A stretch of 64,000 nt of DNA from an uncultured Chloroflexia bacterium (GCA_963751345.1 CAVVUS010000030.1:96001-160000), one strand, 5' to 3'; shown: positions 18,509 to 28,016, numbered from the stretch's first letter. The notes: a model not told the origin generated them from the sequence alone. Program-made: numbers and translations.

Positions 18509-19069
18509 TCAGAGGACAAACTGGGGCAGGACGGCTTCGCAGAGATAGACCGCGTCGGCGGGATGGTAGAACCGCATGCCGGCAGCAGATGCTGCAGCGG
18601 CATCTATGGTGAGGACAACCGGTTCAGAGGCATACCGGAGCGCGTCCTCTCGCGCGAGGTCCGGATTCGAGGTGAGGTGAACGTACTGCCGCTCCCCCGG
18701 CTGCAGCCCCTGGCGGCGGATCCCGTCCACGTCCTCGGGCACAGCCCCATAGTAAAGCTTCTCAGGGGGATCGACCGGCTCATACGTTGGACGGAGCGCC
18801 GTATGGCCATAGAGCGCACGGATCCGGCGGGTGCCGGTCTCCGTCTCGACCACCTCGAAGCGCGCGCGACCGGGGAGGTCAAGCACGGCCTCGATATCCC
18901 GCAAGCCGGCCCACCGGAAATTGGGCAGCGCATGTACGATGTGCAGCACCTCATCAAGGTCTGCAAAACCCTGCGCGTCCAGACGAATGGGAAAGCGGGC
19001 CGGTTGGTGGCGCAGCAGCATCGAGAGAAAGCGGCTGAGTTTGGTCAACTGGTAGTGGTGCTTATTCAC
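18509..19069 (-). CDS. kptA: RNA 2'-phosphotransferase, Tpt1/KptA family
   Basis: LSRFLSMLLRH, RFE, RIRALYGH, GLQPGERQYVHLT; GTG start. Confidence 0.88.
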   Translation of the reverse strand: MNKHHYQLTKLSRFLSMLLRHQPARFPIRLDAQGFADLDEVLHIVHALPNFRWAGLRDIEAVLDLPGRARFEVVETETGTRRIRALYGHTALRPTYEPVDPPEKLYYGAVPEDVDGIRRQGLQPGERQYVHLTSNPDLAREDALRYASEPVVLTIDAAAASAAGMRFYHPADAVYLCEAVLPQFVL

Positions 19070-19110: not shown

Positions 19111-20139
19111 TCAGGCCTCCTCCAGTCGCTTGCCGTACTGCTGAGCGTAATAGGTCTTGTAGAGGTCCCCACTCTTGATAGGACGCCACCACCAGGGGTT
19201 GTCCGCATACCAGCGGGTCGTCCTCTCAATGGACTCCTCGCAGGTGAAGTCATTCGTCCACCCAAGTCCCCGGAGCTTAGAGACGTCGAGCGCGTAACGC
19301 CGATCGTGACCCGGACGGTCTTCCACATACTTGATGAGGCTCTCCGGCTTGCCGAGCGTCGAGAGGACGATCCGGGTCATCTCCAGGTTGGTCATCTCCG
19401 CGCCCGTGCCCACGTTGTAGACCTCGCCTAACTCACCCCTATGGAGCACCAGGTCGATGCCGGAACAGTGGTCAAGCACGTGCTGATAGTCTCGCATCTG
19501 CCTGCCATCGCCGTAGACCGGGAGGGGTTGATCGTCCAGAGCATTGGTGGCGAAGAGAGGTACCACTTTCTCGGGATACTGATAGGGGCCGATATTGTTG
19601 GCGCCCCGCGTGATGGTCACGGGGAGCCCCCAGGACTCACGATAGGCCAGAACCATAAGATCCGCGCCGGCCTTACTGGCTGAGTAGGGGCTGCGGGGCT
19701 CCAGAGGGTCGGTTTCGCACGAACGCCCATCCAGGACCTGCCCATAGACCTCATCAGTGCTGATCTGATGATAGCGCTCGATGCCAAACTTGCGGGCGGC
19801 CTCCAGCAACACATACGTACCGTACACGTCGGTCTGTATGAAGGAACCCGGTTCCATCAGCGAGCGGTCGACGTGTGTTTCGGCTGCGAAATTGACGATG
19901 GTGTCGATCTCCTGAGCCTGAACCGTCTGCTCCACCGCCTGGACGTCACAGATATCCCCCTTGACGAAGGTGTAGCGGTCGGCGAAGTTCTCGGCCACGT
20001 CTTGCAGATTCTCCAGGCGCCCGGCATACGTGAGTTTGTCATAGACCACCATATGGTAGTCAGGGTGAGTCTCAAGCATGTAGCGGGCGAAGTTTGAGCC
20101 GATGAACCCTGCTCCACCCGTCACCATGAGTCGACGCAT
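19111..20139 (-). CDS. rfbB: dTDP-glucose 4,6-dehydratase
   Basis: TGGAGFIGSNF, DKLTYAG, NFAAETHVDRS, STDEVYG, YSASKA, DRPGHDRRY. Confidence 0.96.
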   Translation of the reverse strand: MRRLMVTGGAGFIGSNFARYMLETHPDYHMVVYDKLTYAGRLENLQDVAENFADRYTFVKGDICDVQAVEQTVQAQEIDTIVNFAAETHVDRSLMEPGSFIQTDVYGTYVLLEAARKFGIERYHQISTDEVYGQVLDGRSCETDPLEPRSPYSASKAGADLMVLAYRESWGLPVTITRGANNIGPYQYPEKVVPLFATNALDDQPLPVYGDGRQMRDYQHVLDHCSGIDLVLHRGELGEVYNVGTGAEMTNLEMTRIVLSTLGKPESLIKYVEDRPGHDRRYALDVSKLRGLGWTNDFTCEESIERTTRWYADNPWWWRPIKSGDLYKTYYAQQYGKRLEEA

Positions 20140-20265
20140 AGATTGGCCTCCTCAATCTGAACTACAGCAAGGTCGCGCGTAGATGCTCAGCGCGCCGACC
20201 GCATTCTATCATAAAGAGGAGTGCGTGTCATTCCAGATCATAGTGTTGTCGAAGGGCGTCCGGCG

Positions 20266-20293
20266 TTGACTAAGACACCTTGTTAGGTAGAAT
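20266..20293 (+). promoter_or_regulatory. Putative promoter of the XPB operon (near-leaderless)
   Basis: TTGACT-N16-TAGAAT, 9 nt before the ATG; no Shine-Dalgarno sequence. Confidence 0.55.
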
Positions 20294-20302
20294 GTATAGG
20301 TT

Positions 20303-22051
20303 ATGAATTACAGGATTGATGCCCCGCTGATTGTCCAGGGGGACAGAACCGTCCTCCTGGAAGTCAATAGCCCGGACTACGAAGCCGCTCGCGATCACTT
20401 GGCAAGATTCGCTGAACTGGAGAAGAGTCCGGAGTACATCCATACCTATCGCATCTCCTCCCTCTCCCTTTGGAACGCTGCAGCGGCGGGCTTCGATGCG
20501 GACGAGATCATCGAAGGGCTGCAGCACTTCGCCAAGTATCCGCTGCCTGACAACGTCGTCTTTGAGATACGCGACGCCATCGAACGTTACGGCAGGGTCC
20601 GCCTGACTCGCGATCCCTACGACCCCGAACGGCTGCGGCTGATGTCCGACGAGCCACTGCTGCTCATCGAGCTGGAACGCAATCGCTATCTCAAGCCCTA
20701 CGTGCTGGAGCGACTCGGGCCGCACACCCTTCAGGTCCCCTCCTCGCGACGCGGGCATGTGAAGCAAGCGCTGGTCAAGGCAGGCTATCCGGCCGAGGAC
20801 CTGGTCGGCTACATGATAGGCGCCGCACTTCCCCTGCAACTGCGCGAGGTGATGGTCGAGGGAGCGCCGTTCGTGGTCCGTGACTACCAGCGCGACGCGG
20901 CGGAGATCTTCTGGGCCAACGGCTCCGATGCGGGCGGCGCCGGGGTGATCGTGCTGCCTTGCGGCGCCGGCAAGACGATCGTGGGGATGGCTGCGATGGC
21001 GCAGATCCAGATGAACACATTGATCCTGACCCCAAGTACGGTCGCTGCGCGTCAGTGGCGAGAGGAGCTACTCGACAAGACGACGCTCTCCGAGGAGATG
21101 ATCGGTGAGTATACCGGGCAGCGCAAGCAGATCCGCCCGGTTACGGTGACGACGTACCAGATTCTCACCCACCGGAAGCGCGGGACCAAGGACAACGATC
21201 ACCTTCCCCTGTCTGAGCAGTACCCGCATTTCGCGCTCTTTAGCGAGGGCAATTGGGGACTGATCATCTACGACGAGGTACATCTGCTACCGGCCCCGGT
21301 CTTCCGCATCACGGCAGAGCTCCAGGCTCGCCGCCGGCTGGGTCTGACAGCGACCTTGGTCCGCGAGGACCAACGAGAAGAGGATGTCTTTTCACTGATC
21401 GGGCCGAAAAAGTACGACGTCCCCTGGCACGATCTGGAGCGCCAGGGATGGATCGCGCCGGCCATCTGCTACGAGATACGCGTCCCGATGCCGGAAGTCG
21501 AGCGGATGGAGTACATCATGGCCGAGACGCGCCAGAAGTACCGCGTCGCCGCCGACAACTCCGTCAAACTGGACATGCTTGACCGCCTCTTGACCTATCA
21601 CGCGGGCGACCGCATTCTCATCATCGGCATGTATCTCGACCAGCTGGAGCAGATCGCCCAGCACTACGGCTACCCGATCATCACGGGCAAGACCAAGGTC
21701 GCCGAGCGAGAGGAGCTCTACGAGAAATTCCGCACTGGGGAGATCACGACGCTCGTCGTCTCCAAAGTCGCCAACTTCTCCATTGACCTCCCGGATGCAA
21801 ACGTGGCCATCCAGATCTCGGGCACCTTCGGATCGCGGCAGGAGGAGGCACAGCGCCTCGGTCGGATCTTGCGGCCCAAGTCGGATGGCAGTCAGGCCTA
21901 CTTTTACAGCATCGTGACAAAAGAGACCGTCGACCAGGACTACAGCGCAAATCGTCAACGCTTCCTGACAGAACAGGGCTACCGCTATCTGATCCTCTAC
22001 GGTGAGGAGATTCCCGGGGCGCTGGCCCATACCCAGACGAGACATGGTTAA
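20303..22051 (+). CDS. Bacterial XPB/Ssl2/Rad25-type SF2 helicase
   Basis: N-terminal PLIVQGDRTVLLEV..FAELEKSPEYIHTYRI; Walker A LPCGAGKT; DEVH; LGLTATLVRED (RED motif); SRQEEAQRLGRILR. Confidence 0.95.
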   Translation: MNYRIDAPLIVQGDRTVLLEVNSPDYEAARDHLARFAELEKSPEYIHTYRISSLSLWNAAAAGFDADEIIEGLQHFAKYPLPDNVVFEIRDAIERYGRVRLTRDPYDPERLRLMSDEPLLLIELERNRYLKPYVLERLGPHTLQVPSSRRGHVKQALVKAGYPAEDLVGYMIGAALPLQLREVMVEGAPFVVRDYQRDAAEIFWANGSDAGGAGVIVLPCGAGKTIVGMAAMAQIQMNTLILTPSTVAARQWREELLDKTTLSEEMIGEYTGQRKQIRPVTVTTYQILTHRKRGTKDNDHLPLSEQYPHFALFSEGNWGLIIYDEVHLLPAPVFRITAELQARRRLGLTATLVREDQREEDVFSLIGPKKYDVPWHDLERQGWIAPAICYEIRVPMPEVERMEYIMAETRQKYRVAADNSVKLDMLDRLLTYHAGDRILIIGMYLDQLEQIAQHYGYPIITGKTKVAEREELYEKFRTGEITTLVVSKVANFSIDLPDANVAIQISGTFGSRQEEAQRLGRILRPKSDGSQAYFYSIVTKETVDQDYSANRQRFLTEQGYRYLILYGEEIPGALAHTQTRHG

Positions 22052-23978
22052 GGCCCCACACTCTCTGAAACCCCAGCTTGGCTACAAGCGGATCAGTCCA
22101 CTGCCCCCAGAGGAGGTCCAGGACCAGGCCTTCTGGCAGTCGGATCCGGAGGACCCGGTCGAGACAATTGTCGATGAGATTGTCAGGGCAGAGTGGCGAG
22201 TGAACCATCTCCGCGAGGAAATTGAGACGCTCGGCCTAGAGCCCAAGGGCCGTACACGTCACAACCTGGCACAACAGATGGCCAAGCGCTTCCTGGACCC
22301 GACCCGGCTGGTCAAGGCCATCCAGCAGCTCTCTGACGAGGAGTTCCGTTACTACGTCACCTTGCAGCTTCAAGCTAACCTCGCCAGCTACTATACCAAC
22401 CCACAGGGGCAGAAGCTGTGGCAGGGGTTCTCGACATCCTGGTCCACGATGTCCGCGCGAATTACAAAACTCGGTCTTGCCCTCACCATGGAGGATGGAC
22501 AGCTCTTCCTACCGAGGGCTTCCCGCCGGTGGCTCACGACACTTCAGCTTCCGTTTCCGGCGACGGCGCCGCCAACATCGTCTGCGCAGCCTGCAGACCC
22601 CCGGGAAATCCTGATGCAGATCCAGCAGTTGCTCAACCTGCTCCAGGTTGAGCGGTTCAAGCTCAGAGATCATCTCGTGTGGGAAGCACCCGACTACCCC
22701 TATGCAGAGCCGGTCGTCTGTTGGCCCTTGATGCCGGAAGATGCACAGAAGCTCAAAGCTAACGTTAACATAGAGACAATCATTGGATTGTACCCGCCTG
22801 AACCCTCTCTGGACGGCGCCTCGCTCAAACGATGGGCCGAAGTGCTCAGCGTGACGGAAGATCGGGCGGAGTTCCTGTACCACATTCTGGTGGTGGCAGG
22901 GCTCATCCTGCGGGGCAGTCCCCTCACCGTGGACCCTGACCGCGTCCGTGATTGGATGGCACTCACGCCGAGCCGGCAACTGGGCGTCCTGTTTCATTCG
23001 TATCTCTATATCACGCCATGGGCCGTGTGGTGGCCCCTCTGGCGCGAGGGTAGCGTACGGGTGTCCCGAGCCTATCATGGATATTGGGGCCTGGTGTCGA
23101 TCGACCAGGCCGTGTTCCAAAGCGCGAATCACCTTCGATGGACATTGATCGAGCTGCTCTCCTTCCTGCCGGAGGGCACCTGGCTGGCGACCGAGGACGT
23201 CACACGGTGGATTGTTGACCTCTTTCCTACCTCCGACAGCCACAACTATCTGATGGGTCTGAATCTTGAGGATACGCAGGGTGGGTGGCCGAAGTTTCTC
23301 GAGGAGGCTCTGCTGTTGACCATTGCCGGGCCCCTCCAGACCCTGGGGCTGGCGGACGTCGGACCGTCGCCAGAGATCCCGACACCCCTGCAGAGTGGTC
23401 AGGCCTTCCGCCTGCATGGCTTGAGGGACCTGCATTGGGGGCGTGTCGAGGAAGTATCCCTGGAGGCCCCAACCCCTTTGAATGCCGCGGGGCGACTGAG
23501 TCGCCAGGTCCTACGATTCATACCGTCGGAGTCGGTGCTTGAGGTCGAATCGCCTGTGCCGCCGGCTTTCCTGACCTTTCTGCTCAAGTGGTCGCGGCCG
23601 GTGGGATTCTCCCGGAACTTGGTGCGTTACCAATTGGACGTGCCGCAGCTACACCAGGCTTTCGAAGAGGGAGAGGATCCGGCATCTCTGGGGAACACGT
23701 GGAAGTCGAGTATCGAGGTTGAGCCTCTCCCGGAGATCACGGGATGGTGGGCCTACTGGTGGGAGCGCTATGGGCACGTCAGGCTCTATCCCGCTCAAGC
23801 GATGCTCCAGACCCGCGATGCTTTGACGATGCACGAATTACAGGTAGCTCTGCCGGTCCTGGAGACTGCGTTCCAGGGAATGCTCACGCCCAACGCAGCT
23901 CTGCTGCGAGACGAGGACGTCGACCGGGTCCTCGACGATCTGATGCGGCAGGGCTATATGCCGAAGGAGACCTCATAG
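22044..23978 (+). CDS. XPB-associated protein with a C-terminal XPB-NTD-like (helicase-associated) module
   Basis: The C-terminus (VRYQLD..AFEEGEDP..WERYGHVRL..LMRQGYMP) aligns by eye with the XPB N-terminus (HTYRIS..AAAAGFDA..IERYGRVRL..LVKAGYPA). Its ATG lies just inside the XPB 3' end (8-nt overlap). Confidence 0.75.
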   Translation: MVKAPHSLKPQLGYKRISPLPPEEVQDQAFWQSDPEDPVETIVDEIVRAEWRVNHLREEIETLGLEPKGRTRHNLAQQMAKRFLDPTRLVKAIQQLSDEEFRYYVTLQLQANLASYYTNPQGQKLWQGFSTSWSTMSARITKLGLALTMEDGQLFLPRASRRWLTTLQLPFPATAPPTSSAQPADPREILMQIQQLLNLLQVERFKLRDHLVWEAPDYPYAEPVVCWPLMPEDAQKLKANVNIETIIGLYPPEPSLDGASLKRWAEVLSVTEDRAEFLYHILVVAGLILRGSPLTVDPDRVRDWMALTPSRQLGVLFHSYLYITPWAVWWPLWREGSVRVSRAYHGYWGLVSIDQAVFQSANHLRWTLIELLSFLPEGTWLATEDVTRWIVDLFPTSDSHNYLMGLNLEDTQGGWPKFLEEALLLTIAGPLQTLGLADVGPSPEIPTPLQSGQAFRLHGLRDLHWGRVEEVSLEAPTPLNAAGRLSRQVLRFIPSESVLEVESPVPPAFLTFLLKWSRPVGFSRNLVRYQLDVPQLHQAFEEGEDPASLGNTWKSSIEVEPLPEITGWWAYWWERYGHVRLYPAQAMLQTRDALTMHELQVALPVLETAFQGMLTPNAALLRDEDVDRVLDDLMRQGYMPKETS

Positions 23979-23979
23979 C

Positions 23980-26299
23980 GTGGAGCGTCTTTCGACAGCC
24001 TTACAAGCCTATCACATTAACGCGCTCCAACAGATCGCGGACCAACTGGCGCTCACCCCGGACCGAACGCCGGTGCGCAAGGAGTGGCTGGTTAAAGAAC
24101 TCAGCCGACTGATTCCCAAGATGGCGCGGTCCAAGGAGTATATCGGCTCACTCTCAGAGGCCGAGCGGGCCACCCTCGCGATCGTGCAGCACCAGGAAGG
24201 CACCGCCTTGCTCAGAGATGTCGCCGTTCCGCTCGTGTTGGCAGGTCTGGTCCGCGTCGATGAGTACCCGGAGACTGCCGGTCGACCGAAGGTCGATGAC
24301 GTGCTCGCGGCGCTGATGAGCAAGGGACTGCTGGTCAACCTATCCGCTCCTCGCAGCTCGTCAACCTTGCGCACATTTGCGGCGCCCTACCGTTTCGGCA
24401 TTCCGGCTGAGGTGCAGAATGCGCTGCCCTCGGCTATGTTCTCATTTCCGACGCCTCAACCGCAGGTCTCCACCACCTCAGATAGCTCGATCCCTGTGGG
24501 CATAGGACGTATGGTTCCCCCGGCTGCATCACAAGTAGCCTCACGTGACGTGCAGCAGTTTCTGCGCGAGCTGCTCTTTGCGTGGACGGAGCTCCGACGA
24601 CAGCCGGCACGACAGCTCAAAGCCGGCGGTATGGGCAAACGGGATAGCCGGAGGTTGGCTGAAGCGCTTGGATTTGAGGGTGAGCCAGGGCTGGAGCGGG
24701 TTGCACGGCTCTACGATATGTTGGTGGCCCTAAACTTGGTCGACCAAGATGGAGAGAGTATCACGGCAGTCGAGGGCAACGCCGTTACCCTCTTCTGGGG
24801 CGCCAAACCCGTTCAGCACTGGCGCCAGCTTATTCGGGCCTACACTCGCCTTTCGACACCGTTGGTCCAAGGATCGGCTTCCAGCTACCTGCCCGGATAC
24901 TATCAAGGGGCGACGCAACGCCCGTCGACCGAGATGCGACAGTACGTCCTCGACACACTTGAGCGGATCGCAGACCTGGGCTGGCTATCCTTCCCGTTCT
25001 TTGTGAGACTTCTCACGGGGGGGCAGTCGGGCACCCTGTTGTTCGACGAAGAGATCCTGGAAATCCTCTCCGAGCACATGCGGTGGTATGGTGGCGCCTA
25101 CAGGGGTGAGATGGAAACCGCCATCCAGGGCGTTGAGTACCAGATCGCACGGACGGCCATCGAGGAACTGCGATGGATGGGCATCGTCGACGTGAGCTAT
25201 CAGACGTCAGATGGATGCCGAAATCGCAGCCATCCGTGCCACTCCCGTGATTCGTGCCCCTTCCGATTCTCCCTCCCCCTCCAAGGGAGCAAAGTCCTCG
25301 GTTCAGGGGAGGTCGGGGAGGAGGACACCCGCGGCAATGAGCGAAGAACCGCCCTGGCAGGTGATTCTCCAGCCCGACTTCCAACTGCTTGCGCTGGGTC
25401 CGGTACCGCTCCGAGTGCTGGCCAACCTCGAGCAATTCACCGAGCGGGAGAAGATCGATGAGAGCGTGATCACGTATCGTCTCACACGTGACGTCGCATA
25501 CCAAGCTCTCCAGCGCGGGGAGACGGCGGAATCCATCCTTGTCTATCTGCAGGAGGCCACGGAGCAACCCGTCCCTCAAAACATACAGCGCTCTCTGGAG
25601 GACTGGAGCCGCCTTTACGAACGCATTATTGTCAGGCGCCAGGCCAGGATTCTCCAGGTCGACAACGCCGAGCTCCTCGATCAATTGACATCCGATCCTG
25701 AGCTGTCACAGTGCCTCCACCCGCTCAATGACCGCACAGCCTGGTTCCGACCCGAGGACACCCAACAGATCGAGAAGCGGCTCTTCGACCACGAGATCCT
25801 GGTAGCCCAATCGCGTGGGGCCCAGGCGGATCTGCCCAACAGCCTGAGGTGGCAGGACAACGAGCTGATGCCACGTGCCGCATTGCCGAGCCTTTATGTG
25901 ACGGGGCAGTTGCGCCGCATCGCCGAAGCTCGCGACGGGCGGTGGGCGCTGACCCCGGAAAGCATACAGGCAGCCATCGTTACGGGCTCAGATTCGCTAA
26001 AGATCATCGCAGAGCTCGAGGAAATGACCGGTTCTGACCTGTCGGATGACTGGAAAAAGCGGTTGAAGTCCTGGGGTGGCTACTTTGGCAATGGGGAGAC
26101 GGCGGAGGTCAGGCTACTGCACCTCAAGCGTAAGGACGCCCTTGATGAACTCCGCAATGCCGATGCCGATCTACATCGTTGGCTGCGCCCGCTGGCCGGT
26201 GACGGCAATCTCGCGGTGGTGAACCAGGCGCACTGGCAAGAAGTCCTCGAACTACTGGCTACCTGGGGTGTGGAGATAGAGCCGGACCACTGGTGGTAA
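23980..26299 (+). CDS. XPB-associated protein with two tandem XPB-NTD-like modules (apparent frameshift near 25205)
   Basis: ORFs 23980-25461 and 25211-26299 join. Contains VILQPDFQLL..YRLTRDVAYQALQRG..VPQNIQRSLEDW and a second copy WALTPESIQAAIVTG..LKSW. Confidence 0.78.
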
Positions 26300-26420
26300 C
26301 CTCGAGCGTCTCTGGTAGCCTCCTACGTCGATGATATAATGGCCACTGTAGAGGTCGTCAGCTACTCCAGGGGATGTCCTGAGCATATCCCCACTGCATG
26401 GCGGCAGCGAAGGAGTCGTG

Positions 26421-27091
26421 ATGAGTCCTGAACAATCAGCGGCGGTAAAGCGACGTAAAGCGCAGGGGCTGTACGACAGGCCATCGCGTCATATGAGCAC
26501 TGGGATGTCGAAGACGCGATCAAGGGCTTGGAGGAGGTCATTGCCCTCCATCCTGATAACGCGACTTACCAGATGAGTTTGGCCCAGGTGCTCTCCCGTT
26601 CCGGGGACTTCGACCGCGCGCTTCACGCGCTGGCGAACTATCTGAGGCTGGAGCCGGATTCAAAGGTCGCCGATCGCATCGAGCAGCTATTTGGCAGCGG
26701 CATGGACCCGGTTGAGGGCCACCTCACCGACGGGATGACGACTGCCCATCTGCCCATCGACTTGATCGGCGCGGCCATCCAGATGTGGCTTGAATTCCGG
26801 ATCGCCCTGGGTGAAGAGCCCCTCAATATCCCAAAACCTGAAGCCTGGGCAGCCGCCTTGGACTACACGGTCTGCAAAGTCAACCTCCGCGATGTGCCGA
26901 TGGAGGAGTTGGCCTCGCACTACGGTGTCTCGCCTGATACGCTGCGCAAGCACCACAACACGCTGGTAGAGCGGTTGGACGTCATGCCCTGCGACTACCG
27001 GTATTTCACGGGCAAGCAGAATCCCCTCGATAAGCTGATTGAGGCCGCCGAACTTCTGGAGGAACTGGAAGCTCGCTTTAGCCAGGAATAG
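26421..27091 (+). CDS. TPR protein with C-terminal helical, TFIIB-cyclin-like domain (apparent frameshift near 26478)
   Basis: AAGGAG RBS and ATG at 26421. TPR repeats (ALHPDNATYQMSLAQVL..GDFDRAL..YLRLEPD); C-terminal KPEAWAAALDY..EELASHYGVSPDTLRKH. Confidence 0.75.
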
Positions 27092-27096
27092 GCCCC

Positions 27097-28016
27097 TTGG
27101 AATTGCCGGACCCGGTCACCATCGGCCAAGCTCTGCGTTGGGCCGCGGGGCAACTGGCAAGCGCAACAGATCGTCCCCACACTGAGGCCGAACGCCTCCT
27201 TGCGCACGTGCTGCAGATCGAACGGACCACGCTCCTGGCTCATCCCGAATGGGCCTTGAAGCAAGCTGAGAGGCACACGCTACGTCAACATCGTTGATCA
27301 GCGGGCGACAGGGGTGCCGCTACCCTATCTCCTGGAGGAAGTCGGAGTTCTACGGCCTCACCTTCTCAGTTACCCCGGACGTTCTCATTCCCAGACCGGA
27401 GACCGAGCGTCTGGTCGACCTCGCTCTGGCGTGGATTCAGGGGCACCGGCAGCCTCGCGTGATCGATGTCGGCACCGGCTCCGGATGCATCGCGGTGACC
27501 TTGGCGGTGATGGCACCGGGACTAAGGGTCTATGCCACAGACATTTCGGCGGAAGCATTGCACGTTGCCCGGGCAAACGGTCGGCGCAACAGCGTGGATG
27601 CCCGCGTGACGTGGCTCCAGGCCGACCTTTTGACGCCCCTCGCATTCCCTCTCGACCTGATCGTGAGCAACCCACCCTACGTTGCCGATGGGGAGTGGGA
27701 GCACCTCCCGACATCCGTGCGCAGCGAACCCAGCCTAGCGCTCCTCGCCGGGACCGAGGGGCTTGACGTGATCCGGCGTCTCCTCGTCCAGGCCGCTCGA
27801 CGCCTCTCAGCAACGGGATGTCTCCTCGTTGAGATTGGCGAAGAGCAAGGCCGCGCCGTCTGCTCGCTCGCCCGGGCGGCATTTTCCGGACCGCCCCACC
27901 GCGACGTCGATATCCGTCTGCATCGCGATCTTGCCGGAAAAGATCGTATCCTTGAAGTCTCGATGGCTCCGACTGGCTCGCTATCCGGCCCAGCGAATGA
28001 ACCCACGCTGAAATAG
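27097..28016 (+). CDS. prmC: Release factor glutamine N5-methyltransferase (frameshifts near 27275 and 27343)
   Basis: EAERLLAHVL, PLPYL, VLIPRPETE, DVGTGSGCIA, SNPPY. Confidence 0.92.

Follow-up and report, generated by a model that had tools for sequence, protein, structure and literature searches.

An uncultured Chloroflexia bacterium carries a three-gene operon that couples an XPB helicase to two full-length proteins resembling, by predicted fold, the p52/Tfb2 subunit of TFIIH. The operon lies in a stretch of 64,000 nucleotides (nt; CAVVUS010000030.1:96001-160000), hereafter the window, within which all positions are counted. We consider it rather probable that this operon is a counterpart of the TFIIH bottom lobe (XPB/Ssl2, p52/Tfb2 and p8/Tfb5), in which the two partners would anchor and regulate XPB. 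The genes, numbered by open reading frame (ORF) and measured in amino acids (aa), are arranged as follows.

20303..22051, + strand: ORF1, XPB helicase, 582 aa (NF045503 and Pfam); N-terminal module at aa 9 to about 175, then two RecA-like domains.
22044..23978, + strand: ORF2, 644 aa, p52-like paralogue by predicted fold, of the short type without a SWIM zinc-finger extension.
23980-26299, + strand: ORF3, about 770 aa when read in one frame; broken in the assembly by one extra base.

The tight coupling that the initial annotation had claimed for these genes agrees with the coordinates. The ATG of ORF2 at 22044 stands inside the XPB stop region, where ATGGTTAA is common to both genes and makes an 8-nt overlap. 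The ORF2 stop (23976-23978) is separated by a 1-nt gap from the GTG start of ORF3 at 23980. The three genes form one operon.

Judged from its sequence, ORF1 is XPB. It scored 857.8 bits on the XPB model NF045503 of NCBIfam (cut-off 610), covering profile positions 1-547 of 548. Pfam assigned Helicase_C_3 (117.1 bits, aa 9-138), ResIII (69.8 bits, aa 191-353) and ERCC3_RAD25_C (165.8 bits, aa 378-565) to it, and the strings GAGKT, DEVH and RED are present in the translation. Helicase_C_3 (PF13625) is the domain that we take to be the XPB/Ssl2 N-terminal domain (NTD) of InterPro. The host genome contains no second full XPB. Besides the helicase, no nuclease and no other effector or enzymatic domain was found among the Pfam and NCBIfam matches of the three proteins.

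The N-terminal module of XPB had been read in the initial annotation as recurring once in ORF2, from about 23510, and twice in ORF3, from about 25360 and about 25885. Pfam detects Helicase_C_3 in ORF3 module 1 (81.5 bits for a threshold of 34.2; aa 51-169 of the ORF starting at 25211) and, in the window proteins, detects it neither in ORF3 module 2 nor in ORF2. Indeed, ORF2 matches no family of Pfam or NCBIfam, and ORF2-type relatives score 21.5-26.4 bits on Helicase_C_3, under the same threshold. ORF3 module 2 and ORF2 are tied to module 1 only via hhalign, which was run on family alignments of 69 ORF3-type and 13 ORF2-type sequences. Module 1 aligned with module 2 at a probability of 98.6% (E 8e-16) and with the ORF2 C-terminus at 95.1% (E 3e-8), as compared to less than 1% in the four controls opposing a module to an N-terminal region; this bears out the recurrence. 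Module 2 and the ORF2 C-terminus matched at only 32% (E 5e-4). The starts also fall where they had been placed, position 23510 being ORF2 aa 489, in the predicted clutch (aa 480-580), and the two others being the starts of modules 1 and 2. Pairwise BLAST linked the XPB NTD to the C-terminal piece of ORF3 (ORF3b, E 1e-7). With ORF2, the XPB NTD has just ERYGxVRL in common (E 0.22). ORF2 gave no significant pairwise match with either ORF3 piece, and profiles were needed. With hhalign, the N-terminal regions of ORF3 and ORF2 matched each other at 96.4% (E 1e-9) over 330 columns. On these profile comparisons, ORF2 and ORF3 are paralogues along most of their length. Neither partner has a C-terminal WYL domain, as also annotated initially: the Pfam matches of ORF2 and of the two ORF3 pieces at E<=0.1 include no WYL, nor do those at E<=0.05 of P0013, an intact orthologue of ORF3.

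The likeness to p52/Tfb2 proposed for both partners, with a fold comparison against Tfb2/p52 and Tfb5/p8 suggested as its check, was addressed on predicted models, using TFIIH structures as references (PDB 6NMI, 8EBS-8EBU, 7O4I, 6TRS and 3DOM). The window's ORF2 was modelled with AlphaFold2 (AF2) from a 75-row alignment, with a predicted local distance difference test score (pLDDT) of 90.3 and a predicted template modelling score (pTM) of 0.77. The ORF3 type was modelled in the same way via P0013 (pLDDT 88.4, pTM 0.71). In Foldseek searches against the PDB, the top 16 matches of the P0013 model were all p52/Tfb2 chains (E 4e-9 to 2e-6, 435-650 columns), as were the top 17 matches of the ORF2 model, all from TFIIH structures. 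Taking both models together, p52/Tfb2 chains matched at E 4e-9 to 9e-4 over 318-665 columns and XPB chains ranked next. VIA-align superimposed the ORF3-type model on p52 over two ranges, with 365 residues aligned at Z 12.8 for 54-611 against p52 44-458 (6nmi_D), and with 292-311 aligned at Z about 14 for 176-612 against human p52 131-460. Residues 464-554 of the same model superimposed on human XPB 72-164 (Z 14.4, root-mean-square deviation (rmsd) 2.0 A, 91 residues). ORF2 169-640 aligned with p52 128-462 at Z 8.5-8.9. Its C-terminal domain aligned with p52 405-458 (5of4_D) at Z 4.6, and its residues 579-637 with Tfb5 (3dom_B) at Z 6.2 (rmsd 2.8 A, 57/58 residues). Sequence identity to p52 in the structural alignments is 8-18%. 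At the level of sequence profiles, the best PDB match of the ORF3 family is Tfb2 of 6trs (E 1.8e-4), reaching about 60 residues upstream of the module, and human XPB NTDs come next. The fold comparison supports the view that both partners are p52/Tfb2-like in their predicted structure, beyond the repeated module alone.

PMC6422496 describes the p52 clutch as having the fold of the XPB NTD, with a p8-binding module after it. The order of domains by fold in p52, winged helices, then clutch, then p8-like C-terminal domain, is found in the predicted models of both partners. Every module reads as a clutch of XPB-NTD fold, then a small p8-like domain, and ORF3 would correspond to a whole p52 plus one further module. 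The domains map to the window as follows.

23481..23783, + strand: ORF2 clutch-like (XPB-NTD-like) domain, aa 480-580 (VIA-align against XPB NTDs, Z 8.9-9.2, rmsd 3.3-4.0 A, 94-96 residues).
23778..23963, + strand: ORF2 C-terminal p8/Tfb5-like domain, aa 579-640 (VIA-align, complex model).
23980..25212, + strand: ORF3 N-terminal part, about 411 codons, frame 1, winged-helix region of a p52-like protein; past the break this frame runs out of register to 25461.
25213..25216, + strand: one extra base, frame 1 to frame 2 (alignments with P0013 and its homologue P0083; contig of run X5).
25217..26299, + strand: ORF3 C-terminal part, frame 2; disordered linker, then module 1, then module 2.
About 25349-25630 and about 25637-25795, + strand: ORF3 module 1, clutch and p8-like domain respectively (Helicase_C_3, hhalign, model).
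About 25850-26296, + strand: ORF3 module 2 (hhalign).

The ORF2 type occurs in several lengths. Relatives of at least 700 aa carry an N-terminal SWIM-type CxC...CxH motif in 37 of 37 cases, and the short type, including the window's ORF2, in 0 of 37. One genus has an ORF2-type gene of just 314-336 aa (L085:6577-7518, L091:6760-7740, L094:6629-7636), in which the SWIM-bearing N-terminus is joined directly to the C-terminal module, without the winged-helix middle. The host genome itself encodes a third, unlinked p52-like paralogue of 564 aa on a contig outside the window (C14; L003:238-1932). It scores 70 bits on a wide ORF2 profile and 39 bits on the ORF3 profile, and shows a sub-threshold Helicase_C_3 at aa 423-509.

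We then considered how the three proteins may assemble. A complex prediction was run with three chains, each with its own alignment: XPB 1-175, the ORF3 C-part (ORF3-C, 320 aa) and ORF2 478-644, ORF2 being the scored partner. The prediction passed, with an ipSAE of 0.78 (runs 0.80, 0.77 and 0.78) as compared to 0.00 for the best of 3 controls. When the tool was calibrated, 58 of 80 solved complexes and 2 of 110 mismatched pairs reached its mark. Between runs, at least 93% of contacts are the same, with a partner pLDDT of 83 or more. The interface predicted with confidence is between ORF2 572-644, its p8-like end, and ORF3-C 93-110, 130-162 and 181-190, residues that belong to the first p8-like domain and to the start of module 2. 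The p8-like end of ORF2 is thereby the main ORF2-ORF3 interface in the complex model. In addition, the ORF2 clutch (504-541) touches XPB residues 3, 10, 12-13, 18, 20, 46, 48, 79 and 82.

The mechanism that we propose is built on this arrangement. XPB would be an ATP-driven DNA translocase. ORF2 and ORF3 would be non-enzymatic paralogues of the p52/Tfb2 type, made of winged-helix domains, a clutch and a small p8-like domain, with a second clutch and small domain in ORF3. The ORF2 clutch would form with the XPB NTD a pseudo-symmetric pair, as p52 does, and the p8-like end of ORF2 would pair with the first p8-like domain of ORF3, in the way that the p52 C-terminal domain pairs with p8/Tfb5. One paralogue would then play p52 and the other would stand in for p8. 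XPB would be anchored by the partners, which would also tune its ATPase and translocase activities, so that duplex DNA could be opened or remodelled in repair or in a DNA transaction of a related kind. This proposal draws on gene order, homology, predicted folds and conservation, together with the predicted interfaces; stimulation of the ATPase, opening of DNA and a role in the cell are what we infer from them. The most specific form of the idea is a complete bacterial XPB-p52-p8 lobe, in which two p52-like paralogues heterodimerise via their p8-like domains, one clutching XPB and the other playing p8. We put this form forward tentatively and hold it to be somewhat doubtful.

The same domains may also be read as those of alternative partners. 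Each clutch, in ORF2 or in ORF3, would bind the single XPB NTD, giving two XPB complexes with different targets. Both proteins indeed carry a complete clutch and p8-like unit, and XPB offers one NTD. Other phyla manage with one partner, closer to the ORF3 than to the ORF2 profile, and one genus of Anaerolineae has an ORF3-type gene that is not linked to XPB and ORF2. However, contact between ORF2 and ORF3 is a high-confidence feature of the complex model (0.78 versus 0.00), the two genes are translationally coupled in the window (1-nt gap) and they co-occur in every XPB-bearing Anaerolineae locus or genome examined for both. We therefore regard two separate complexes as unlikely, and retain a bottom-lobe-like assembly as the preferred reading.

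The reading of ORF3 as a single protein depends on how its frame is interpreted. Two open frames overlap here, frame 1 being open to 25461 and frame 2 from 25196 onward. The initial annotation had suspected a break near 25205 and had left the unity of the gene to be checked. The break is real, and the intact orthologue P0013, together with P0083 and the X5 contig, answers for the unity of the gene. P0013 is a single protein of 779 aa that spans both ORF3 pieces and is 84% identical. The homologues found with the C-terminal piece are single proteins in 69 of 69 cases (657-794 aa), many of them named 'helicase-associated domain-containing protein'. P0083 (452 aa) is encoded on the same 1.69-Mb contig as P0001, the 97%-identical homologue of ORF2, and it reads ...QTSDGAEIAAIRATP... 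through the 25213-25216 site in frame. One contig of run X5 (94 nt, depth 2.25, other strain) omits base 25213. Since P0013, P0083 and X5 are all in frame there, the window carries one extra base within 25213-25216, and we take ORF3 to be one gene broken by this base. The gene is broken at about residue 412, roughly 20 residues ahead of the disordered segment of the model (P0013 435-457, pLDDT below 50). Among the sequencing runs searched, the best shared 0.17 of the sampled words and none reached one half. We set aside programmed frameshifting at 25213, as no slippery motif was seen and the three relatives are plainly in frame.

The extra base is either an assembly error or a recent lesion. 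In the latter case, the module could be a decaying remnant in the host genome, ORF3 being a true pseudogene, with XPB and ORF2 alone or nothing functional left. Besides the frameshift at 25213-25216, decay would agree with a second, different frameshift in the close relative that carries the 97%-identical ORF2, about 15 codons downstream (P0083), and the third, unlinked p52-like paralogue of the genome might act as a substitute. On the other hand, both ORF3 halves are open apart from the extra base, 84-85% identical to the intact orthologue and without further stops, and the near-identical X5 sequence is in frame at the break site. The shift of the relative occurs in a run of C, where assembly errors are typical, and a split ORF3-type gene is also seen in G070, an assembly in few contigs. 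From the intact halves, the X5 frame, the C run and the G070 split, an assembly artefact appears at least as likely as decay, and a system reduced to a remnant seems to us improbable. In G070 (L083:4561-7108), the ORF3-type gene is split over three frames; this type of gene is either error-prone to assemble or repeatedly broken.

Conservation across Chloroflexota had been suggested as a check on the three-gene arrangement. Related loci were collected by searching with the ORF3 alignment via a single peptide pattern, LQPDFQxLA, and the result speaks for Chloroflexota only: 51 of the 51 loci belong to metagenome-assembled genomes of this phylum. An ORF2-type gene stands upstream of ORF3 in 49 of them, the other 2 beginning at a contig end, and XPB stands further upstream in 42, the other 9 being too short on that side. 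Identity to the window proteins is 71-97% for XPB, 32-85% for ORF2, 27-85% for the N-part of ORF3 and 42-84% for its C-part. We also scanned with profiles 18 further XPB regions, mostly from genomes where a single ORF2 query had found nothing. Among their 16 primary loci, 15 show XPB, ORF2-type and ORF3-type genes in that order. In the sixteenth lineage, one genus, an ORF2-type gene alone is adjacent; the ORF3-type gene is unlinked and present in 5 of the 5 genomes searched, lying 53 kb away in the single-contig genome G013. The trio is thus conserved in Anaerolineae, at 42 of 42 loci with enough upstream DNA and at 15 of the 16 further ones. The ORF2 profile retrieved 553 representative proteins at E<=0.001.

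Some variants accompany these loci. A second, more divergent XPB copy, scoring 641-655 bits on the XPB profile, is present in some Anaerolineae (L097 and L099, from G039 and G122; also G082). No partner genes were found beside two of these second copies, one of the two regions ending 266 nt after the gene. In G192 (L086:942-4676), XPB and most of the ORF2-type gene share one open frame of 1245 aa, either a fusion or an assembly error. As evidence of fusion this frame was given little weight: the same gene is frameshifted further on and the relatives are unfused.

Related pairs exist elsewhere. A tblastn search against plasmids returned 5 records. Plasmid pDATS01 of Deinococcus aquaticus encodes XPB, a 115-aa ORF and one partner of 805 aa, and a Paenibacillus cellulosilyticus plasmid encodes XPB and one overlapping partner of 657 aa. 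These two-gene systems resemble that of the window in that XPB is followed by a partner bearing Helicase_C_3 (657-805 aa) and akin to the ORF3 type. Indeed, the ORF3 profile gives the single partners higher scores than the ORF2 profile does (64.6 versus 29.1 bits, and 41.5 bits versus no hit). They differ in having one partner only, to which Anaerolineae add an ORF2-type paralogue, and the Deinococcus form also differs by its 115-aa ORF between XPB and the partner. This small ORF (L079:5439-5786) matched the p8-like part of the partner profiles when 7 sequences were searched (19.2 bits with the ORF3 profile and 11.6 bits); it may be a free-standing bacterial p8 analogue. On plasmid pSINAC01 of Singulisphaera acidiphila (L081:5473-6501), an orphan 342-aa 'helicase-associated domain-containing protein' lies beside an IS66 transposase, with no XPB nearby.

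The surroundings of the operon bear on whether the trio could serve in anti-phage defence or another conflict system, with a helicase motor guided by sensor or scaffold proteins. The neighbours encode an rmlB-like dehydratase, Tpt1/KptA, a tetratricopeptide repeat (TPR) protein and PrmC, all housekeeping genes. Upstream, on the strand opposite to XPB, are the Tpt1/KptA RNA 2'-phosphotransferase (18509-19069, - strand) and the rmlB-like dTDP-sugar dehydratase (19111-20139, - strand). Downstream of ORF3 comes the TPR protein (187 aa, with a weak DUF6398-like tail; 26528-27091, + strand). A defence role would fit the patchy distribution of XPB, found at E<=1e-100 in 96 of 301 sampled genomes of the class and in none of those sampled from the same family or order, as well as the related pairs on large plasmids and a partial match of XPB to the PADLOC helicase PbeA. 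Against it, PADLOC-DB 2.0 gives 0 families for ORF2 and P0013, and the XPB matches (PbeA and others) cover the generic helicase core only. No nuclease or other effector domain appears among the Pfam and NCBIfam matches. The housekeeping neighbours keep their synteny, the rmlB-like gene having its upstream place at 17 of 51 loci and the TPR gene following at 27 of the 46 loci with room. The 71-97% identity of XPB across 42 loci suggests strong purifying selection, and the GC content of the operon is the same as that of its surroundings (about 0.60 across the whole window). Defence is, in our view, very unlikely. Because no enzymatic domain is seen beyond the helicase, the partners have no PADLOC match and the neighbours are housekeeping genes, a housekeeping machine akin to the TFIIH bottom lobe is favoured.

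The TPR gene was also considered as a fourth subunit and set aside. It stands directly after ORF3 in the 27 loci mentioned and is missing from more distant trios; its identity, 72-95%, is above that of the XPB partners, a pattern expected of plain synteny.

One site upstream of XPB was noted as a possible promoter.

20266..20293, + strand: promoter-like site, TTGACT, 16 nt, TAGAAT, 10 nt upstream of the XPB start; 10/12 consensus matches.

It is the sole match on the + strand in 19900-27400, where three sites were found as compared to 1.7 expected from shuffles, and is weak evidence. A scan of the same interval found no terminator-like site, also weak evidence.

Several observations weigh against a TFIIH-like reading of the operon. 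When ORF3-C was replaced in the complex job, leaving the XPB NTD and ORF2, the score fell to 0.00, so that the XPB-ORF2 contact, taken alone, is unsupported. The success of the prediction may be due in part to likeness with solved TFIIH structures. The job, with its own alignments and three chains, differs from the setup used to calibrate the tool, so that the calibration fits only roughly, and XPB was limited to residues 1-175, with the helicase lobes outside. As concerns the fold, the ORF2 family profile has no sequence match in the PDB at E<=10. The Pfam Tfb2 model (PF03849, cut-off 34.5) stays below threshold, at 17.2 bits for the ORF3 C-part and 16.6 bits for P0013; the TIGR00625 match reaches 12.2 bits for a cut-off of 320.7, and ORF2 has no hit to Tfb2 models. 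Some ORF3 homologues do have a precomputed PF03849 match (8 of 69 rows). Because the Tfb2 model score is below threshold, we call these proteins p52-like, not Pfam family members, a label based on folds and profiles. With p52 the models reach low global TM-scores, of 0.16-0.34, which by themselves show no shared overall shape; we attribute them to the differing domain arrangement of flexible multi-domain proteins. XPB is present in 0 of 3 genomes sampled from the same family and 0 of 7 from the same order, for 96 of 301 in the class, and this patchiness implies that it is dispensable or mobile on long time scales. Finally, with ORF3 frameshifted in the window and at another nearby site in the close relative carrying the 97%-identical ORF2, the system could be decaying in the host lineage. 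The initial annotation had proposed a heterotrimeric XPB-p52-like complex that opens DNA. The fold, the conservation and the three-chain prediction speak for it; the heterotrimer as such and the opening of DNA stay at the level of what we infer.

Compared with TFIIH, the window has in common an XPB motor with the same N-terminal domain and, in the predicted models, partners with winged helices, a clutch of XPB-NTD fold and a p8-like end domain. The predicted pairs, p8-like with p8-like and clutch with XPB NTD, mirror those between the p52 C-terminal domain and p8 and between the clutch and the XPB NTD. Unlike in TFIIH, the p8-like partner seems to come from a second full-length p52-like paralogue, and ORF3 has an extra clutch and small domain. 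The window's genome is without a separate p8 gene and without p44: no match to p8/Tfb5 (PF06331) was found at E<=0.01 in the host genome (93.4% complete), p8-like folds being present just as domains of ORF2 and ORF3, and no Ssl1/p44 family member was found in the same genome (93% complete).

Archaeal XPB-Bax1 offers another comparison. There, the gene of an XPB-family helicase is accompanied by that of a dedicated partner, to which a guiding role in repair is ascribed (PMC7293015, PMC7672443). The window shares this principle, a helicase of the XPB family encoded with dedicated partners. However, Bax1 is a nuclease, whereas the window's partners have no nuclease or other enzymatic domain and fold like p52. 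No Bax1 chain was among the 50 best matches in any of four fold searches. In bacteria, the XPB of M. tuberculosis has been described as a 3'-5' helicase and DNA-dependent ATPase with strand-annealing activity (PMC3353954). Like that of the window, it is a bacterial XPB with a eukaryote-like N-terminal domain, and it was studied alone. According to the same 2012 paper, bacteria lack a homologue of p52 and probably also a TFIIH-like complex (PMC3353954). In contrast, the operon found in the window's lineage argues for p52-like partners.

The role of XPB in archaea and bacteria is called 'more elusive' in a 2026 review (PMC13024598). We found no description of a bacterial p52-like XPB partner in the open-access literature, subscription journals being outside the search. 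What is added here is the reading of every module as clutch plus p8-like domain, the predicted ORF2-ORF3 pairing via p8-like domains, the resolution of the ORF3 frameshift and the comparison of one- and two-partner forms. Bacteria seem to possess part of a machine thought to be eukaryotic, and a conserved operon tying XPB to two full-length p52-like proteins provides concrete partners for bacterial XPB. It becomes testable whether lone bacterial XPB is weak because its activators were left out, which DNA transaction is served and how the XPB-p52-p8 part of TFIIH originated. The two-paralogue form is, besides, a natural experiment on the division of labour between p52 and p8. Should the complete lobe prove true, p8/Tfb5 would be a pared-down C-terminal domain of the p52 type, and the XPB-activating module would predate eukaryotes or would have been exchanged with bacteria. 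Bacterial XPB, so far studied as a lone enzyme, would then need its partners for real activity.

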